Shown here: piece after piece, positions 11,123 to 20,154 of the stretch
How positions within the stretch are numbered: position 1 is the stretch's first letter
Layout: each line of letters starts with the position of its first letter
NCBI GenBank assembly: GCA_965368285.1
Contig: CBDUMJ010000001.1
Span: 1-29,892 of the forward strand
Source: an uncultured archaeon
GTDB taxonomy: Archaea; Thermoproteota; Bathyarchaeia; TCS64
Direction of reading: 5' to 3'
Length of the DNA stretch: 29,892 nucleotides
Translations under genes and position numbers: made by a program
The notes under the pieces: model-generated
Seen by the model: only the letters and a program-made list of their open reading frames with translations
Told to the model about the DNA's origin: nothing
Databases searched by the model: none

Positions 11123-11242
11123 GTGAACGTGCTTTTTGCCTGGTTACGGAATTGTGTGACTGGTAGTTTCTAAGCGCGCCAATTTGTTATTTATAAGCGT
11201 ACTATTTGGGCGTGACAACGTGACTTGGCCCCTTCTAACGCG

Positions 11243-11440
11243 ACGTGACTTTTCCAACAGCTCTCTTAACGCGTACTTAACACAGCTCGGTTAACGCGTA
11301 TTGGTTCCTTCCAACACAACACGACGTGAACGTGACTTTTCTAACAGCTCTCTTAACGTGTACTAGCACAGCTCTCTTAACGCGTACTGGTTCCTTTTCA
11401 ACATAACGTGACTTTTTCTAACAGCCCCCCAAACGCGTAC
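11243..11440. repeat. Nested direct repeats (iteron-like), candidate replication origin
   Basis: ACGTGACTTTT units at 11243, 11330, 11406; five copies of ACAGCTCTCTTAACGCGTACT-like 20-21-mers at 11257, 11282, 11344, 11368, 11421; located at the gene-strand switch. Confidence 0.8.
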
Positions 11441-11471
11441 TAAGCAAAAATATATTAAAATTAAATATATA

Positions 11472-11510
11472 AAATTTAGTAATATATTAAGTTAATATAT
11501 TACTAAATTT
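11472..11510. repeat. Perfect 19-bp inverted repeat with 1-nt spacer, AT-rich
   Basis: AAATTTAGTAATATATTAA-G-TTAATATATTACTAAATTT. Confidence 0.95.
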
Positions 11511-11569: not shown

Positions 11570-11869
11570 ATGGCGAACCTGAAAGAACTCATCGGCAAGG
11601 CCCTACAGGAGCAAGGCCAGCAAGGCGGCGGGCACATCACTGCCATGCGCCAACTCCTGGGCAAAATCGAGCGCGAGCATGGCCGCGAGGTGATCAGGCA
11701 ACTCAGGCCCTCTGGGTTCCGCCTGATCTTCGCAGCAGTCCACCCTGACTTGGCAAAGAAGGTCGGGAACCAGCACGAGTACGCCTGCCAGCTGAACCAC
11801 TACAAGGCCAACAACGACTTCAAGTATGACAGGGTCAACAAGACTTGGATCGACACTAGGGCTAAATAA
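11570..11869 (+). CDS. Hypothetical protein, paralog of 16181-16516; GC-rich codon usage
   Basis: ATG 6 nt after SD (track GTG at 11561 lies inside the SD); LKELIGKAL...GHITAMRQL...LRPSGFR. Confidence 0.85.
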   Translation: MANLKELIGKALQEQGQQGGGHITAMRQLLGKIEREHGREVIRQLRPSGFRLIFAAVHPDLAKKVGNQHEYACQLNHYKANNDFKYDRVNKTWIDTRAK

Positions 11870-11870
11870 T

Positions 11871-11908
11871 CCCGCCCAGGGCCCCGGCGGGAAAAGGTAA
11901 AGGGGCCC
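11871..11908 (+). ncRNA. Predicted H-type RNA pseudoknot 1 (3' of the 11570 gene)
   Basis: S1 CCCGCC/GGCGGG, L1 CA, S2 GGGCCCC/GGGGCCC, L2 0 nt, L3 AAAAGGTAAA. Confidence 0.7.
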
Positions 11909-11940
11909 AGTAAAGAAATGACCCGTTCAGGGGATTGCGA

Positions 11941-11985
11941 CTGGCCCGGGCCCATCCAGGCCAATCTAGGGTCAGAAAGGAGGTG
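11941..11985 (+). promoter_or_regulatory. Structured leader element copy 2 + SD
   Basis: CTGGCCC-G-GGCC(CATCCA)GGCC-AATCTA-GGGTCAG-AAAGGAGGTG. Confidence 0.75.
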
Positions 11986-11992
11986 GAGGAAG

Positions 11993-12280
11993 ATGATGTT
12001 AAGGTTCATAGAGGCGGGTGATGGCCCCTTCGAGGGTACTCACGCCGTAGATATAGGTGTTGAGACCACACGAGGGGAGCGAATCAGCGCGCGGCTCTTC
12101 TTCGGCAAGAAGGGTTTCGCAATCGACAACCTGATCTATCAGAGAACCGCTGAGTCATCAAAAGTATGCGTCAAGAGCCTTAGTGATCTCGATTGCGCGT
12201 CCTTGGAAGCACGTGATTGGGTTGTGTCAATGTTCGGGATTGAGACTGGCATAGAAGAGGAGGTGGAGGAAGATGAATGA
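11993..12280 (+). CDS. Hypothetical acidic protein
   Basis: ATG after leader SD; track start 11918 reads through the leader element. Confidence 0.75.
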   Translation: MMLRFIEAGDGPFEGTHAVDIGVETTRGERISARLFFGKKGFAIDNLIYQRTAESSKVCVKSLSDLDCASLEARDWVVSMFGIETGIEEEVEEDE

Positions 12281-12446
12281 AGGCTTTAAAGTAGGTGATA
12301 GGGTTACTGTTGTAGACCACCCTGATGACCATTATAACGGGGTGGAAGGGGAAATCGTGTTCATTCACGGAGGTTCTTGTCTAGTGGAGAATGATACTAC
12401 AGTCTATGAACTGAGACTGGATTGGTTAAAGTCTAAAGAGGATTGA
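12273..12446 (+). CDS. Small KOW/SH3-like beta-barrel protein (57 aa, below the track cutoff)
   Basis: Own translation MNEGFKVGDRVTVVDHPDDHYNGVEGEIVFIHGGSCLVENDTTVYELRLDWLKSKED; GGAGG SD; overlaps upstream stop. Confidence 0.7.
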   Translation: MNEGFKVGDRVTVVDHPDDHYNGVEGEIVFIHGGSCLVENDTTVYELRLDWLKSKED

Positions 12447-12448
12447 GG

Positions 12449-12498
12449 CTGACCCAGGTACCCGCGCGGGTACCTAATCCAAGGTCAGGAAGGAGGTG
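12449..12498 (+). promoter_or_regulatory. Structured leader element copy 3 + SD
   Basis: CTGACC-CA-GGTACCC(GCGC)GGGTACC-TAATCCAA-GGTCAG-GAAGGAGGTG. Confidence 0.85.
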
Positions 12499-12506
12499 AA
12501 AGAGCT

Positions 12507-13031
12507 GTGGAGCGCCAGGAATACTTAATTCGAAAGAAAGACGGCAGAGAATTCAAAGTAATCGTCGAGCTGGAACCTGAGCCTACACCTGTAATGGAAC
12601 CTGACCTTACTGACCTGATCGAGGAAGCCTTAGAAAAGAAGGCTTCCAAGTCGAGGTGGCCACTGGGCCCTACACAAAAGATTCGGTTCAGAGGAAGGAC
12701 AAGGAGGATCATGCGGCTGCAGTACATACAGGCATTTGGAATCTGGGGTGCGTTGGAAGTACTAAACATGAGGCCGAAAGAGACACCGAAGGAAGAGTTG
12801 AACATCGACATGAAAGACCCGTTAGGAAAGCTGATCGCGGAAGCCCTTAAAGGAAAGAAAAGAGGGCGGCCGCGGAAGAAAGTGGAGTCGCGTGTTCTAC
12901 CGGGAACGAAGATTGGAGACATGTATCAGAAGTGGGGAGAATTCACGTGCGACTGGAAAGATAAACCGGACTCAGAAATAGACGTTGGGACGATGGAAGT
13001 GATAGAAAGTCTATTATACGGAAATGAATAA
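12507..13031 (+). CDS. Hypothetical protein with AT-hook-like KRGRPRKK motif
   Basis: GTG after SD; LTDLIEEALEKK and LGKLIAEALKGK resemble the N-termini of the 11570/16181 proteins. Confidence 0.75.
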   Translation: MERQEYLIRKKDGREFKVIVELEPEPTPVMEPDLTDLIEEALEKKASKSRWPLGPTQKIRFRGRTRRIMRLQYIQAFGIWGALEVLNMRPKETPKEELNIDMKDPLGKLIAEALKGKKRGRPRKKVESRVLPGTKIGDMYQKWGEFTCDWKDKPDSEIDVGTMEVIESLLYGNE

Positions 13032-13075
13032 CCGTTGTGGCTCCGGTAAAAGAATCTGAGCCACGGAGGGAGGTG
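13032..13075 (+). promoter_or_regulatory. Variant leader element (long outer stem, no inner hairpin) + SD
   Basis: GTGGCTC-CGGTAAAAG-AATCT-GAGCCAC-GGAGGGAGGTG. Confidence 0.55.
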
Positions 13076-13080
13076 AGGAG

Positions 13081-13341
13081 ATGAAGAGATGTAAGAAGTG
13101 TGGAAAACCGATTCCAGAATGGGTGGAGATATGCCCAGAGTGTGCACCTCTTCGCGTGGAAGAGGTGGTTGCGTCGGTTTTCTACATCAATGAAGATGGG
13201 GTCCAGAAGGTAGAGAACTTCACAGATGGGAGCGAAGATGGGTTGGAAGAAGCAGTAAAGTTCTTCGAGCAGTGCCCAGGGAGGGCCAGGTTGGTAGTAA
13301 AGGATCCAATTGAATCATGGAGACGAGTAAAGGAGAAGTGA
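13081..13341 (+). CDS. Zinc-ribbon protein
   Basis: N-terminal CKKC...CPEC; SD upstream. Confidence 0.8.
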   Translation: MKRCKKCGKPIPEWVEICPECAPLRVEEVVASVFYINEDGVQKVENFTDGSEDGLEEAVKFFEQCPGRARLVVKDPIESWRRVKEK

Positions 13342-13342
13342 G

Positions 13343-13600
13343 ATGCCGTATAGAGTACAGGAAGTCGGTTCCCCACTACGAGCCTATAACGGTACCTTGC
13401 TCTGTACTAGTACATTAGAAGAAGCAAGGGTGGTACAGGAGCAGTGGTATGGTGAAGATGTGGACCTCTATGAGGTTCACGGGTATGTAGTGGAAAGCTT
13501 CGAGGAAAAATACTGGTTGGATAACAATAATTTTGTGAAGGTAAGAGCGGTCCTACTCCGACCTAAAAGGATTATAAAGGTTGGAGTAGTGCCGATTTGA
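13343..13600 (+). CDS. Hypothetical protein (weak ADP-ribosyltransferase-fold pattern)
   Basis: ORF directly after the previous stop; YR...CTST...LYEV pattern. Confidence 0.7.
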   Translation: MPYRVQEVGSPLRAYNGTLLCTSTLEEARVVQEQWYGEDVDLYEVHGYVVESFEEKYWLDNNNFVKVRAVLLRPKRIIKVGVVPI

Positions 13601-13615
13601 AAGGAGGTGAAAAAG

Positions 13616-13732
13616 ATGTTAGAGAAATACCAAGAAATCGGTCCGGTAGTTGTAGGCGTTAAGAACGTGCATTACTTCATGGTTTGGTTCTTTAAGGGTC
13701 GCGCAACAGTAGTCGCGTTCTTAAAGAAGTAA
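13616..13732 (+). CDS. Small hydrophobic protein (38 aa, below the track cutoff)
   Basis: AAAGGAGGTGA SD; MLEKYQEIGPVVVGVKNVHYFMVWFFKGRATVVAFLKK; fills the gap up to the next leader. Confidence 0.65.
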   Translation: MLEKYQEIGPVVVGVKNVHYFMVWFFKGRATVVAFLKK

Positions 13733-13735
13733 GCA

Positions 13736-13778
13736 GCCCAGGACCAAGAGGTCCTAATCCAAGGCCAGAAAGGAGGTG
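13736..13778 (+). promoter_or_regulatory. Structured leader element copy 4 + SD
   Basis: GCC-CA-GGACC(AAGA)GGTCC-TAATCCAA-GGC-CAGAAAGGAGGTG. Confidence 0.85.
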
Positions 13779-13783
13779 AGGAG

Positions 13784-13975
13784 ATGAAGTCGAAAGTATT
13801 AAATGAAGTGATTCGCGTCGGGAACGTTTTAGAGAAAGCGGAGACGAGGCTGGAGCGGATAATAGATGAGGTTGACGACGCGAAAGCAAGGGAGTATCTT
13901 ACCGAAGCTCACGACAAAGTAGTGGAGGCGTGGGCGACGTTGGTAACATTAGTCACAGAAGAGAAAGCAAAGTAA
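13784..13975 (+). CDS. Small helical-hairpin (coiled-coil) protein
   Basis: ATG after leader SD; amphipathic heptads. Confidence 0.75.
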   Translation: MKSKVLNEVIRVGNVLEKAETRLERIIDEVDDAKAREYLTEAHDKVVEAWATLVTLVTEEKAK

Positions 13976-14016
13976 GCCTGGGCCAAAGGTCCTAATCTAA
14001 GGCTGGAAAGGAGGTG
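13975..14016 (+). promoter_or_regulatory. Structured leader element copy 5 + SD
   Basis: AGCCT-GGGCC(AAA)GGTCC-TAATCTA-AGGCT-GGAAAGGAGGTG. Confidence 0.85.
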
Positions 14017-14022
14017 GGTGTT

Positions 14023-14448
14023 GTGAGGTTGTTTACGACTGTACCATGTTCTATGATAAGTCTACAACAAATCCTGAAAGATGGAGTACCACCTGGTTCT
14101 GATACTGCTAACGGGCATGATGTTGTACTCGTTTCAGCAATTGAGTTCCCACTATTAAATGAACCTACTTGGGTAGTGGAGTTTGAGGTTGAGCCTACAG
14201 AAGTCTACTTTGATTGCGACGATGGTAGTGAAATAATAAATCAGCTTCCACTTGAGGAGCAAAAGATTGACTGGAGTGATAAACCGTTAGCTACAGTACT
14301 TAGTAAGTATAATGATGTTGAAGTACGTACTGGTTATGGGTTGTATGTCAAACGTGTAAAACCGGAACAGGTGAAGAGAGTGACGTTTCAGTTACATTTG
14401 GATTCGGATTTGAGTACAACACATATTAGAATGGACTTAACAGCCTAG
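14023..14448 (+). CDS. Hypothetical protein, possible ART/Tpt1-like fold
   Basis: Likely GTG start at 14023 (track GTG is inside the SD); RLFTT...LQQILKDGVPP, WVVEFEV, VKPEQVKRV. Confidence 0.7.
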   Translation: MRLFTTVPCSMISLQQILKDGVPPGSDTANGHDVVLVSAIEFPLLNEPTWVVEFEVEPTEVYFDCDDGSEIINQLPLEEQKIDWSDKPLATVLSKYNDVEVRTGYGLYVKRVKPEQVKRVTFQLHLDSDLSTTHIRMDLTA

Positions 14449-14486
14449 GACCAAAAAGGTCCTAATCTAAGGCTGGAAAGGAGGTG
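14441..14486 (+). promoter_or_regulatory. Structured leader element copy 6 + SD
   Basis: CAGCCT-A-GGACC(AAAAA)GGTCC-TAATCTA-AGGCTG-GAAAGGAGGTG; overlaps the upstream stop codon. Confidence 0.85.
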
Positions 14487-14491
14487 AGGGA

Positions 14492-14896
14492 ATGAAGCTC
14501 GATCTAGGTTCGGGACCAAAAGAATACTGGGTAGAGGACACCCCAGACTGGATCCATTTGGACTGCGAGAAGTATGACGGAGTCGTGGAGTGGAGGTGTC
14601 CTGATCGGATTCCGGTTGGGGATGAGTCTACCGATGAGGTTTACATAGGGCAACTATTGATAGCGTTAGACAAAATCGCGCGTGCGGAGTTGGCGCGCGA
14701 GTTAGATAGAGTATGTAAAGTTGGCGCGGTTTTACAGGTTCATTGTTATGGAGATGAAAGAAGTGGAGTTGGAGTATGGAGAGAGTTCTTCGATCTGCTA
14801 GAGTGTAGAGGATGGACATTAGTAAAGGAGGAACCGGTTAACAAATGGGAAAGAGGTTATACCTATATGATCAAACTAATAAAGAGACCCGCTTAG
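14492..14896 (+). CDS. Class I SAM-dependent methyltransferase-like protein
   Basis: KLDLGSG motif I, WIHLD, IPVGDESTDEVY, ELDRVCKVGAVLQV. Confidence 0.7.
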   Translation: MKLDLGSGPKEYWVEDTPDWIHLDCEKYDGVVEWRCPDRIPVGDESTDEVYIGQLLIALDKIARAELARELDRVCKVGAVLQVHCYGDERSGVGVWREFFDLLECRGWTLVKEEPVNKWERGYTYMIKLIKRPA

Positions 14897-14945
14897 AGGG
14901 GATTGAGCAGCGTTATATAGTTTCTATAAGGAACTATATACAATG

Positions 14946-14989
14946 GGCCTGGGACCAAAAGGTCCTAATCTAAGGCTGGAAAGGAGGTG
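14946..14989 (+). promoter_or_regulatory. Structured leader element copy 7 + SD
   Basis: GGCCT-G-GGACC(AAAA)GGTCC-TAATCTA-AGGCT-GGAAAGGAGGTG. Confidence 0.85.
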
Positions 14990-14998
14990 AGAGAGAAA

Positions 14999-15343
14999 GT
15001 GGACTACAGGGACATCATCAACCAGTTCATGCAGGAAGTGAGAGCGGAACCTGGGTTACTAGAGAAGCTGAAAGGGAAACCAGTCTGTGTTTGGACTAGA
15101 GTGATTTGTGACTACGCTGAACTGAAAGAGTTGACAAAGACACCTAGAGTGAAGTTATACCGTCAAGTTTATAGTTGGCTACGACACCGGATCACCTATG
15201 AACCGAAACCGAAAGAGGACAAAGAACAGCCGTGGGGCAAGTTGGACCCACGAAAGAGAGCGTATCAGATTACGGAAGCGCGGTACACCCGAATTGAAGT
15301 AGAAGCGGTTAATAAAGCACTATTTCAACGTCAGGATGAGTAA
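14999..15343 (+). CDS. Hypothetical protein
   Basis: Likely GTG start 9 nt after SD (track GTG 14987 is inside the SD). Confidence 0.75.
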   Translation: MDYRDIINQFMQEVRAEPGLLEKLKGKPVCVWTRVICDYAELKELTKTPRVKLYRQVYSWLRHRITYEPKPKEDKEQPWGKLDPRKRAYQITEARYTRIEVEAVNKALFQRQDE

Positions 15344-15365
15344 GTGGTTGGCACGAAATTTCTGG

Positions 15366-15394
15366 TTGATGTGAAAATGCACCTGTAATAAAAT
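15366..15394 (+). promoter_or_regulatory. Possible sigma70-type promoter
   Basis: TTGATG-N17-TAAAAT; overlaps the 20-bp repeat, so either reading could be incidental. Confidence 0.35.
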
Positions 15395-15406
15395 CAAGGG
15401 GTTGAG
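15387..15406 (+). repeat. 20-bp element AATAAAATCAAGGGGTTGAG, partner of 11103-11122 (opposite strand)
   Basis: 19/20 identity. Confidence 0.75.
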
Positions 15407-15413
15407 CTCGGGG

Positions 15414-15518
15414 TGCTCACTTAGGCTGAGCAACTTTTGAGTAGAAACAGTTAAGCACTGGAACTCTACTTTGACAAAACCCTGCCTTAGGTCTCGCTTT
15501 GGTGAGGCCAGGCAGGGT
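15414..15518 (+). ncRNA. Candidate small RNA of three consecutive hairpins
   Basis: TGCTCA/TGAGCA (15414-15432); AGTAGA/TCTACT with inner CAGT/ACTG (15440-15470); ACCCTGCCT/AGGCAGGGT with inner GGTCTC/GAGGCC (15479-15518); ORF-free gap. Confidence 0.4.
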
Positions 15519-15552
15519 AATGAAAGGAAAAGCTGGTTTGTTTGTGAAGGTT

Positions 15553-15591
15553 TAATTTTATTTTATATAAATTTTTATTTTTTAAAACGTT
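15553..15591 (+). promoter_or_regulatory. 39-bp AT-rich element, copy A (candidate promoter)
   Basis: 38/39 identical to 16088-16126; contains TTTATATA; immediately 5' of an SD. Confidence 0.7.
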
Positions 15592-15605
15592 AGGAGGTGT
15601 CGTTT

Positions 15606-15878
15606 GTGACAGATGGGTACAAACTAAGGGAGATAAAGACAGTTGATGATCTGGGTGAAACTGGAAACATTTGGTGGTTGGAGCTGTATGAGTTCGAGGA
15701 CCTCAAAGGCAAGTATGTGATTGATGATCGTCAGGCAACTACCTATGACCCAGAAGGATCCAAGATGGTTGAAGTGGTTCTGAGTGTCAACAATGTGATT
15801 TATGATGTAGAAGCAGAAGTGGACATAGTAGGCAACGAGTTGTACATTGCAGAGGAAGAGATCGACCGGATAATCTAG
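15606..15878 (+). CDS. Acidic hypothetical protein
   Basis: GTG after AGGAGGTG SD (track start is inside the SD). Confidence 0.75.
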   Translation: MTDGYKLREIKTVDDLGETGNIWWLELYEFEDLKGKYVIDDRQATTYDPEGSKMVEVVLSVNNVIYDVEAEVDIVGNELYIAEEEIDRII

Positions 15879-15903
15879 TCAAACTAAGAGGAGGTGAAGA
15901 AGA

Positions 15904-16080
15904 GTGCATATAGAGGAAGAAGAGATGGAAGAGGTATATCAGGCATTAGAGAAGCTACTGTGTAAAAAGTTGGAAGAGCTTGGGCATGATAAGATGTCAG
16001 AGTGTGTAGAAGAACTGGATAAGGAGTTAGCTTATTGGATTAACAAGTACTTGGACGGTTGGGGTTCTTACTACCTGTAG
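15904..16080 (+). CDS. Small acidic helical protein (58 aa, below the track cutoff)
   Basis: AGGAGGTGA SD; MHIEEEEMEEVYQALEKLLCKKLEELGHDKMSECVEELDKELAYWINKYLDGWGSYYL. Confidence 0.7.
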   Translation: MHIEEEEMEEVYQALEKLLCKKLEELGHDKMSECVEELDKELAYWINKYLDGWGSYYL

Positions 16081-16087
16081 TCAGGCA

Positions 16088-16126
16088 TAATTTTATTTTA
16101 TATAAAATTTTATTTTTTAAAACGTT
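16088..16126 (+). promoter_or_regulatory. 39-bp AT-rich element, copy B
   Basis: 38/39 identical to copy A; directly precedes leader copy 8. Confidence 0.7.
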
Positions 16127-16131
16127 TGGAA

Positions 16132-16174
16132 CAGCTTGGACCTTTAGTCCAAATCCAGGCTGTGAAAGGAGGTG
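16132..16174 (+). promoter_or_regulatory. Structured leader element copy 8 + SD
   Basis: CAGCT-TGGAC(CTTTA)GTCCA-AATCCA-GGCTG-TGAAAGGAGGTG. Confidence 0.8.
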
Positions 16175-16180
16175 AAAAGA

Positions 16181-16516
16181 ATGGCGGAGGCAAAGAAAAC
16201 TGGCATTATGACCGTAAAAGAATCTGAGAAGGAAGCTACTGTGGATCTGAAATCTCTCGTGGACGCAGCATTAGAGAAGAAGAACGGTCAGTCTCAGTTG
16301 GGCCACACCACCTACATGCGCGATTTGGCAGCAAGGATCATAAAGGATAAAGGTCCTGAGGTCTTCAAGAAGTTAGGTCCAACTGGATTCCGGAAAGTAT
16401 GTATCCTCATGTTCAAGAACGAGAAGCCTGAGTTGTGGAAGAGAGTGCAAGAGAAAGTGAAGATGTCAACCTTGAAGGCAGAGATGCAGAAGGCTTACTA
16501 CGATGCACAAGAGTAG
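16181..16516 (+). CDS. Hypothetical protein, paralog of 11570-11869
   Basis: LKSLVDAAL...GHTTYMRDL...LGPTGFR aligns with the 11570 product. Confidence 0.85.
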   Translation: MAEAKKTGIMTVKESEKEATVDLKSLVDAALEKKNGQSQLGHTTYMRDLAARIIKDKGPEVFKKLGPTGFRKVCILMFKNEKPELWKRVQEKVKMSTLKAEMQKAYYDAQE

Positions 16517-16525
16517 TAGGCCTTT

Positions 16526-16565
16526 TACCGCTGTGCCACCGTGGCGGTATATAAAACAACGGTGG
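16526..16565 (+). ncRNA. Predicted H-type RNA pseudoknot 2 (3' of the 16181 gene)
   Basis: S1 TACCGCT/GGCGGTA, L1 GTG, S2 CCACCGT/ACGGTGG, L2 0 nt, L3 TATAAAACA. Confidence 0.7.
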
Positions 16566-16620
16566 GCTAAAGTTCGTGCATCGAACTATAATATTAGGAA
16601 AAAGCTGGGAGGTTTAATCG

Positions 16621-17487
16621 ATGCATGAACTCAAACTAATATCAAAGGCCGGTAGAGAGCGTTATTATGCTTTTAAGCCGCTGCAAAAGGTATTGCCTAA
16701 GTTATCAGAAGCTGATTATGAAGATCTTAAGGAGGCCATTGGAAAGAACGGACTCACGGAGTCTATCAAAGTCGTGAAGCTGGACAGGAACCGGTATGTC
16801 ATCTTAGACGGAGTGCATAGATTCAAAGCCGTTGAGGAGCTTGGTTGGCTCAACACAGCAAGATCCAAAGTCAAGGTGGAGTTTGTCGAAGCCAAAAAGG
16901 AAGACTGGTTCCGAATTGGGCTTATGATGAACTTAAACGCAAAGAGAGGTAGGCAGATAAAGAAGAGGGATTTGGTCAAAGCACTCTACAAAAAGTATAA
17001 AGAGAGAGTGAAGGAGCCACGTGTTGAAGAGTTTAGGAAGGAGCTGGAGTCATATGGGTTGCATCTGGCGTTAGAGACTGTGAAATCGTATGTACATAGT
17101 GCATTTAAGCCAGAGCATCACGGTCAGAGATCAAAGCAGCTGCAGGCCCCCAGGGGCCTGCATCCCAAACCAAGGTCAGAAACTAGAGACTCTGCAGGCC
17201 CCCAGGGGCCTGCTGTAGAACAAGAAACGCACGATATTAGTACAGATCCAAGCCCTGATGCTGACGTGGGGTCTGAAAGTGCACAAATATCAACAGATGC
17301 AAGACTGAGCAATTCCACGATCCTACTCAACATGAACAGTGTTGCAAACCAACTCGACACAAACGTTGAAGAGCTCATCAAGTGTCTTTTCGAGCTGGCA
17401 CCGGACCTTCAGAAAGCTGCAAAGCGGTTCAATGAAACTCCATTGGACATGTTACGCAAGTGTGTTGAAGCATTGAAAAAGATATAG
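16621..17487 (+). CDS. ParB/Sulfiredoxin N-terminal domain protein
   Basis: LPKLSEADYEDLKEAIGKNGL...IKVV...YVILDGVHRFKAVEELG; low-complexity linker; helical C-terminus. Confidence 0.85.
   Translation: MHELKLISKAGRERYYAFKPLQKVLPKLSEADYEDLKEAIGKNGLTESIKVVKLDRNRYVILDGVHRFKAVEELGWLNTARSKVKVEFVEAKKEDWFRIGLMMNLNAKRGRQIKKRDLVKALYKKYKERVKEPRVEEFRKELESYGLHLALETVKSYVHSAFKPEHHGQRSKQLQAPRGLHPKPRSETRDSAGPQGPAVEQETHDISTDPSPDADVGSESAQISTDARLSNSTILLNMNSVANQLDTNVEELIKCLFELAPDLQKAAKRFNETPLDMLRKCVEALKKI
17140..17213. repeat. Two identical 22-bp palindromes inside the ParB-like gene (candidate parS-like sites)
   Basis: CTGCAGGCCCCCAGGGGCCTGC at 17140-17161 and 17192-17213, read in different frames; 9-bp arms, 2-nt spacer. 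Confidence 0.85.
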
Positions 17488-20092: not shown

Positions 20093-20116
20093 GAGCGCAT
20101 GAAGTGCGTGTGGACT

Positions 20117-20154
20117 AAATTTTTTAATTTAAAAAAATTTAATTTTAAAATGTT
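20117..20154 (+). promoter_or_regulatory. AT-rich element, diverged third copy
   Basis: Ends TTTTAAAATGTT-AGGAGGTG like copy A (TTTTAAAACGTT-AGGAGGTG); dyad AAATTTTTT/AAAAAATTT. Confidence 0.5.

Follow-up and report, generated by a model that had tools for sequence, protein, structure and literature searches.

What are the two short stretches of interleaved complementarity that stand directly behind the stop codons of two related small genes on a putative archaeal virus contig, and what might they do for the transcripts that carry them? The window examined here is the whole of this contig (C1; 29.9 kb, 29,892 nucleotides), and both stretches can be written as H-type pseudoknots, in which the arms of a first stem (S1) and a second stem (S2) follow one another in the order S1a-S2a-S1b-S2b and are joined by loops L1, L2 and L3. 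The folds are present, non-random, conserved and partly covarying on the sense strand. Judged by its sequence, the pseudoknot motif is real and conserved and appears to be as yet undescribed, with S1 well supported structurally and S2 circumstantially. Our leading reading, which we hold tentatively, is that both elements would be cis-acting, sense-strand RNA structures of early-operon mRNAs that serve through their shape as protective or insulating folds at the 3' side of the gene.

Geometry and chance expectation of the two folds

The two elements and the genes that they follow are located in the window as listed here.

11570 to 11869, + strand: paralog 1 gene, 99 amino acids from the ATG at 11570, first gene of the early operon (its homologs also have 99 amino acids)
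11870 to 11908, + strand: pseudoknot 1, by direct sequence reading
16181 to 16516, + strand: paralog 2 gene, 111 amino acids from the ATG at 16181, with the start set by homolog lengths
16526 to 16565, + strand: pseudoknot 2, by direct sequence reading

At site 1 the stop codon TAA occupies 11867-69, and S1 pairs UCCCGCC (11870-11876) with GGCGGGA (11886-11892) over 7 bp. L1 is CA (11877-78), L2 has no nucleotides, S2 pairs GGGCCCC (11879-11885) with GGGGCCC (11902-11908), and the A-rich L3 reads AAAGGUAAA (11893-11901). Site 2 follows a double stop, TAG TAG (16514-19); here S1 pairs UACCGCU (16526-32) with GGCGGUA (16543-49) including one G.U, L1 is GUG (16533-35), L2 is again zero, the A-rich L3 reads UAUAAAACA (16550-58), and S2 pairs CCACCGU (16536-42) with ACGGUGG (16559-65) in seven Watson-Crick pairs. 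The arms stand in H-type order at both sites and the loops are long enough to span the grooves, given that a 7-bp S2 needs an L1 of at least 1 nt, a 7-bp S1 needs an L3 of at least about 5 nt, and coaxial stacking needs an L2 of 0-1 nt. The sequence-only reading had proposed two H-type pseudoknots at these places, and direct reading writes both of them out exactly. The 7-bp S2 and the L2 of zero that it gave hold at both sites, while its 6-bp S1 from 11871 at site 1 has to be corrected to 7 bp from 11870. Since this S1 abuts the TAA, pseudoknot 1 begins 0-1 nt downstream of the stop where 1 nt had been given; the distance of 9 nt from the first stop to pseudoknot 2 is unchanged.

The upstream genes had also been called paralogs, and BLASTP agrees (41% identity over 69 amino acids, E 5e-14). 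The description of the stems as almost fully re-sequenced between the two copies is apt for S2, in which 5 of 7 pairs have both partners replaced and all seven remain Watson-Crick, a comparison that counts as covariation on the presumption that the two elements are homologous. It is overstated for S1, the arms of which are identical at 5/7 and 6/7 positions and differ by one compensatory pair and one wobble change. A similar S1 next to an unrelated S2 suggests that gene and element were duplicated jointly and that S2 was replaced later while still paired.

A strict H-type scan was run over the window (S1 at least 6 bp, S2 at least 7 bp, at most 1 G.U, L1 1-4, L2 0-1, L3 5-12). On the + strand it returned 3 matches, against 0.29 +/- 0.52 per strand in 150 dinucleotide shuffles; these were both reported sites, which are the only GC-rich ones, and one match inside the portal coding sequence. 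The - strand gave 2 matches, namely the same portal stretch and an AT-rich promoter-like block (20116-20149). When S1 was given and loop and tail were shuffled, a fitting S2 arose in 2.6e-4 of trials at site 1 and in 0.7-2e-3 at site 2. As a separate observation, the interleaved complementarity in the portal-MuF gene (1542-1574) is kept with one change in G002 (L317:7508-7539) and is probably a coding coincidence.

Energies were estimated from nearest-neighbour stacks with a Dirks-Pierce-type penalty rather than by a pseudoknot folding program, and by this estimate the pseudoknot outscored the best nested fold at site 1 (-29 vs -17.8 kcal/mol at 37 C; -9.7 vs -5.1 kcal/mol at 80 C) and at site 2 (-21 vs -15.7 kcal/mol at 37 C; -4.0 vs -2.2 kcal/mol at 80 C). 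The nested folding z-score of site 1 is not significant (-0.26), as is expected when a GC-rich pseudoknot is scored under a nested model, and it was not used as evidence.

Conservation of the folds in related loci

Related loci (numbered with the prefix L below) were drawn from IMG/VR, JGI, ENA and NCBI. A search downstream of homologous genes, which the sequence-only reading had named as a check, found the site-1 element behind every paralog-1 homolog, in 14 distinct versions from >15 independent assemblies and with protein identity down to 56%. The S1 types among them are UCCCGCC/GGCGGGA, CCCCACC/GGUGGGG and one with a U.G pair. In the alignment of the 14 versions, three pairs of S1 are changed on both sides; pair 13-36 is CG in 8, UA in 5 and UG in 1, and pair 17-32 is AU in 7 and GC in 7. 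Across this family 98.5% of alignment cells are paired, compared with 65-69% once the pairing partners are shifted by a single column. L1 varies from 1 to 3 nt (C, CA, CU, CC, UC or CCU) next to a constant S2a and its constant partner, L2 is always zero, and L3 has 8-10 nt, remaining A-rich with few changes. S2 consists of 6 invariant pairs and one pair that is G.U in a single version (L004). In the primary copies, which lie directly behind the paralogs at either site, the non-Watson-Crick pairs are sense-strand G.U (L026, L004, L177, L193 and the L034/L008 type).

The site-1 unit has also been copied. In L039 (2831-2904) and L040-42 (L040:913-987) it is duplicated head to tail with a 35-nt period; S2b of the first unit overlaps S1a of the second, so the two tandem knots cannot both be complete. 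Degenerate extra copies stand behind a different gene in L021 and L027, and the element is therefore an intergenic cassette that is not bound to one gene. Mismatches in the degenerate copies show no strand preference.

At site 2 the downstream search gave a divided answer. The pseudoknot cassette is unchanged in L030 and L186-189, and it recurs in L177 between different flanks on both sides; in that locus the conserved block coincides exactly with the span between the outer ends of S1a and S2b, and S1b has a C>U change that produces a G.U pair. In the remaining paralog-2 homologs, with 79-96% protein identity, the slot is without exception occupied by a plain hairpin of 9-11 bp, and the exact site-2 pattern is absent from the IMG/VR search. 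By sequence the slot hairpins are of several types, unrelated or covarying, and four unrelated ones stand behind near-identical paralog-2 proteins. The 10-11 bp hairpins of L028/L178 and of L033/L029 are identical save for a reverse-complemented 4-nt loop (GTTT/AAAC), a difference that is a DNA inversion of the palindrome. What is constant in this gene family, as far as the sequences tell, is a stable fold right behind the stop, and a pseudoknot would be one way to supply it. Because unrelated sequences fill the slot and one loop is inverted, its function should depend on shape and not on letters.

Candidate functions of the folds behind the stop

The sequence-only reading had described the elements as classic coaxially stacked H-type folds, and the comparisons above fit this description for sense-strand RNA: S1 covaries, the pairing of S2 survives re-sequencing, L1 is short and variable, L2 is zero, and the edges of the site-2 block are exact. 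We consider the formation of the pseudoknots as such rather likely; their presence in vivo and their action as barriers are what we infer. Each paralog is the first gene behind an AT-rich promoter-like block, and a stable fold lies directly 3' of this first cistron, within the transcription unit. The duplicated module would thus consist of a promoter, a structured leader, a small winged-helix-like regulator gene and the structure behind its stop. In the proposed mechanism, the polycistronic RNA would be cut somewhere downstream, 3'-to-5' exonucleolytic decay would halt at the compact GC-rich fold, and the promoter-proximal cistron would outlast the rest of the operon. This would be the malE-malF principle, realised in an archaeal virus and with a pseudoknot; a coaxially stacked H-type pseudoknot of 7+7 bp would offer about twice the stability obtainable from about 40 nt.

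Protective 3' structures behind a first cistron have been described (PMC5927463). The malE-malF repetitive extragenic palindromic (REP) hairpins and the other intercistronic structures of that kind (Dar and Sorek 2018, PMC5927463) share with the present elements a stable fold behind the promoter-proximal cistron of an operon, the lack of a terminator U-tract, and a sequence that is free provided that it folds. They differ in that the elements here belong to an archaeal virus, where other enzymes replace RNase E, PNPase and RNase II, and in that the two folds are predicted H-type pseudoknots and not hairpins. The exonuclease-resistant RNAs (xrRNAs) of flaviviruses and plant viruses are likewise compact viral pseudoknotted folds, the job of which is to stop a processive exonuclease. 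Unlike the simple H-type folds here, which stand 3' of the gene that they would protect, xrRNAs are ring-like structures with a three-way junction that block the 5'-to-3' enzyme Xrn1 and protect the RNA downstream.

Two functions had been offered for the pseudoknots, a 3' nuclease barrier and a protein-binding RNA. The predicted barrier fits better, because four unrelated plain hairpins occupy the slot of near-identical paralog-2 genes, and for the same reason the fold is unlikely to be a specific RNA site of the adjacent protein. Several points nevertheless weigh against a protective role. The plain hairpins mean that a pseudoknot is not required in the site-2 slot. The constancy of the site-1 S2 in all 14 versions leaves its pairing unsupported by covariation within the family, and such strict conservation of letters exceeds what a mere barrier needs. 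C.A mismatches, which would be G.U on the other strand, occur in secondary or degenerate copies (L021b, L027b, L040 unit 1). Archaeal exosomes or other RNases might not be halted by folds of this kind. In the metagenome-assembled genome (MAG) in which the contig is binned, no reverse gyrase scores above the cut-off.

One rival holds that one stem-loop, S1 or S2, is the functional unit and that the second stem is a by-product, not formed or irrelevant in vivo. The simple hairpins of most paralog-2 homologs and the missing covariation of the site-1 S2 speak for this, as does the consideration that a ribosome terminating 0-9 nt upstream would have to melt the fold in each round. We nonetheless find it unlikely, since the complementarity of S2 is improbable by chance at both sites and was retained across a total change of sequence, the loop varies in its letters except in the constant S2a, the conserved block of site 2 ends exactly at S2b, and the estimated pseudoknot energy beats that of any nested fold. 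Equally unlikely in our estimate is a regulatory RNA that a host or viral protein or the ribosome binds, or that changes its fold when translation of the upstream gene terminates, and that thereby sets translation or processing downstream, be it an operator in the style of T4 gene 32 or of ribosomal protein operons, or an insulator behind which the next leader can fold by itself. Such a role would account for the letter-invariance of S2 and most of L3 at site 1, beyond what pairing needs; the fold abuts the stop codon, so termination would unfold it each time, and conserved two-stem leaders, each fused to a Shine-Dalgarno (SD) sequence, recur throughout the operon. It is opposed by the variation of the downstream genes among relatives, by the weak resemblance of the paralog fold to a DNA-binding winged helix, and by the four unrelated hairpins, which leave no sequence-specific reader in the neighbouring protein. 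[quoted passage not shown] The letter-invariant GGGCCCC/GGGGCCC stem would be the recognition surface, and the units would be an archaeal-virus counterpart of RNA anti-CRISPRs or of ToxI-type RNAs.

The motif in question stands between pseudoknot 1 and the leader of the next gene.

11910 to 11941, + strand: CRISPR-repeat-like motif GUAAAGAAAUGACCCG-UUCA-GGGGAUUGCGAC, an Rfam CRISPR-DR8 match below the gathering score

The CRISPR-DR8 match covers the full model length (20.9 bits against a gathering score of 39; E 0.011). Every relative carries the motif 10-13 nt behind pseudoknot 1 in the form GUAAAGAA(A)UGACCCG-loop-GGGGAUUG(C/A)(G/A)AC, and its 3' half is common to real CRISPR arrays of vent and sediment bacteria (Sulfurimonas, Cloacimonadota, Latescibacterota). 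Matching arrays were found in none of 79 genomes of the MAG's order and none of 251 of its class, the single match, in G044, being coding sequence. The sole CRISPR array assembled in the MAG (G000:C86:6729-7025) has the repeat GTTTCAATCCACGCCCCCGCACGGGGGGCGAC and spacers of about 34 nt, and is unrelated to the motif. A second copy of the motif (14886-14910) spans the stop of the gene at 14492-14896 without a pseudoknot; the copies share TGACCCG-loop-GGGGATTG and end in CGAC or AGCA. In two relatives (L026:1115-1198 and L046:335-418), what adjoins the pseudoknot-1 copy of the motif is the sequence found downstream of the gene at 14492-14896 in the window, as if recombination between the two motif copies had deleted about 3 kb.

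These junctions bring in an explanation at the level of DNA, in which interleaved inverted repeats and motif would be recombination or operator sites at the module borders of a mosaic virus genome. Cassettes are indeed exchanged exactly at these places, the junctions in L026 and L046 fit a deletion between two copies of GACCCG..GGGGATTG, the inverted hairpin loop is a DNA event, the mismatches of degenerate copies lack a strand preference, and the paralogs may bind DNA. Yet no known DNA process needs an A-B-A'-B' arrangement with an L2 of zero, a short L1 and an A-rich sense-strand L3 at two unrelated sequences, the G.U pairs of the primary copies all lie on the sense strand, and recombination is to be expected as a by-product where RNA elements are conserved, so that we regard this explanation as improbable. 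A more doubtful proposal makes pseudoknot 1 and the CRISPR-repeat-like motif one unit that engages the CRISPR machinery of the host: Cas6 would bind or cleave the solitary repeat, which would be an RNA anti-CRISPR or else a processing site that the virus has borrowed, and the knot would cap the new 3' end. The whole CRISPR-DR8 model is matched, TGACCCG-loop-GGGGATTG(A/C)(A/G)AC is common with real arrays, the variants of relatives have typical 8-nt handles at their end (ATTGAAAC, ATTGAGAC or ATTGCGAC), and the spacing to the knot is constant within 10-13 nt. Solitary repeat units that act as RNA anti-CRISPRs (Racr) are known in phages (PMC10651486), and the single repeat-like unit at 11910-11941 resembles them in standing in a virus genome. 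The score, however, is far below the gathering score, no matching array was found in the searched genomes of the MAG's order and class, the unit lies inside an operon and not behind its own promoter, the second motif copy overlaps a coding stop without a pseudoknot, and site 2 has no motif. If this neighbour were functional, RNA-based counter-defence would be extended to archaeal viruses. Least probable of all, and to our minds very improbable, is an antitoxin RNA like those of type III toxin-antitoxin systems, in which pseudoknot units cut from the transcript neutralise a neighbouring endoribonuclease. The units of ToxI, CptI and TenpI are similar pseudoknots of about 35 nt with A-rich segments, and the tandem copies in L039 and L040-42 recall their head-to-tail order. 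The units in the window are single and follow a small helical protein where such antitoxins precede a toxin, the downstream gene is not conserved, and Pfam, PHROGs and PADLOC gave no match to ToxN, CptN, TenpN or another toxin or defence family among the neighbours. The comparison with ToxI in the sequence-only reading accordingly fails on the toxin, and its objection that the units here are not in arrays is softened by two relatives with tandem units.

Other identities were considered for the elements. Rfam 15 gave no match at the gathering score over the window and nothing on either pseudoknot at E<=10; permissive scans across the two modules yielded the weak CRISPR-DR8 match beside pseudoknot 1 and no other. 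No tRNA or tmRNA was found in the window. No run of four or more T occurs within 30 nt after either fold, and an archaeal intrinsic terminator was rejected for this reason; the T-runs lie elsewhere, within two AT-rich blocks (15560-15590 and 16085-16125). The recoding pseudoknots (murine leukemia virus gag-pol read-through, luteovirus and retrovirus -1 frameshift, antizyme +1) are also H-type with an L2 of zero and an A-rich L3, and the present folds, like them, lie close to a stop codon, at 0-9 nt. A recoding signal was rejected because there is no X XXY YYZ slippery heptamer (the upstream sequence reads ..GCU AAA UAA), site 2 has a double stop, and the frame past the site-1 stop is not conserved, relatives having stops 16 codons on and L1 indels of 1-3 nt. 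The in-frame continuation from 11870 to 12280 exists in the window only, and relatives carry stops and non-triplet indels, which also exclude a small open reading frame (ORF) across the element on either strand. Small pseudoknot riboswitches (preQ1-I, SAM-II, fluoride, guanidine-III) resemble the elements in having a hairpin and an A-rich tail, the 3' end of which pairs with the loop; the present elements differ from them in giving no Rfam match even at E 10, in standing behind and not before a gene, and in a 7-bp P2 that would be constitutively folded. The VIPR tandem-repeat RNAs (bioRxiv 10.64898/2026.04.26.720920) are unrelated, being 5-nt GGY/NN repeats. A scan of viral contigs for GGGCCCC-N-GGGGCCC was swamped by ordinary GC hairpins and was uninformative.

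The elements form a motif of about 40 nt that matches no Rfam family and occurs in many independent vent metagenomes. Knowledge of cis-acting RNA structures in archaeal mRNAs is very sparse in general, as it is of the ways in which archaeal viruses adjust gene expression inside an operon. The covarying S1, re-sequenced S2, tandem copies and hairpin replacements are natural "mutants" and offer a clean test of whether pseudoknots block RNA decay or processing in archaea. If a barrier role is true, the element would be transferable as an mRNA stabiliser to archaeal, and possibly thermophilic, expression systems.

The virus contig and other features of its early operon

C1 is binned in an archaeal MAG (TATA-binding protein present, sigma-70 absent) and is taken as a head-tailed virus or provirus because it encodes a protein of 1440 amino acids with weak portal and MuF matches. 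The DNA runs that contain it are hydrothermal-vent and sediment metagenomes. A covariance model of pseudoknot 1 with the adjacent motif found no copy in 70 other genomes of the MAG's family; the assignment of the contig to this MAG as host is therefore uncertain. One paralog-1 homolog is located in a MAG labelled Thermococcus sp., and the flanks of a 131-kb provirus contig held nothing taxonomically telling about the host. The structure model of paralog 1 (predicted local distance difference test 79) is helical with a C-terminal beta-hairpin, in a winged-helix-like arrangement. Its fold matches are weak (E about 1) and mostly to winged helix-turn-helix regulators or winged-helix DNA binders. 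The paralogs probably encode winged-helix regulators.

Genes on the + strand run from 11570 on, behind a divergent intergenic region of 570 bp. The further features of this region and of the two modules are as follows.

11170 to 11440: field of iteron-like direct repeats (ACGTGACTTTTYYAACAGCTC..TTAACGCGTACT) within the divergent intergenic region, with the - strand genes on one side and the early + strand operon on the other; may be an origin or a field of operators
11445 to 11510, + strand: AT-rich promoter-like block of module 1, read in the sequence, with its promoter role inferred for an archaeal host
11942 to 11992, + strand: two-stem leader with the Shine-Dalgarno sequence of the next gene, the true start of which is ATG 11993 or 11996
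16085 to 16125, + strand: AT-rich block of module 2, read in the sequence, preceding paralog 2 and resembling the module-1 block
16571 to 16631, + strand: long-range 14-bp helix (16571-84 with 16618-31), separate from pseudoknot 2

In the module-2 block, the upstream transcription unit could end at T-runs, and the next one could begin from a TATA-like sequence. An AT-rich block of nearly the same sequence (TTTATTTTATATAAAWTTTTATTTTTTAAAACGTT) stands ahead of three gene groups (15560-15590, 16085-16125 and 20117-20150), and at each of them the T-runs could terminate the preceding unit while the TATA-like core could begin the following one.

The leader at 11942-11992 belongs to a recurring type. 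A conserved two-stem leader, composed of an outer stem, an inner hairpin, AAUCYA and the SD sequence GGAGGUG, precedes most of the small early genes, in the spacers between 12447 and 14986. An extension of the ORF behind pseudoknot 1 back to 11918 is spurious, as relatives have stops or indels between 11918 and 11993. Downstream of pseudoknot 2, the 14-bp helix at 16571-16631 buries the SD and AUG of a ParB-like gene (fold z -3.27). It competes with a local 5-bp hairpin, the pairing of which is kept by a compensatory double change in L188, and the helix may act as a translational switch of the ParB-like gene.

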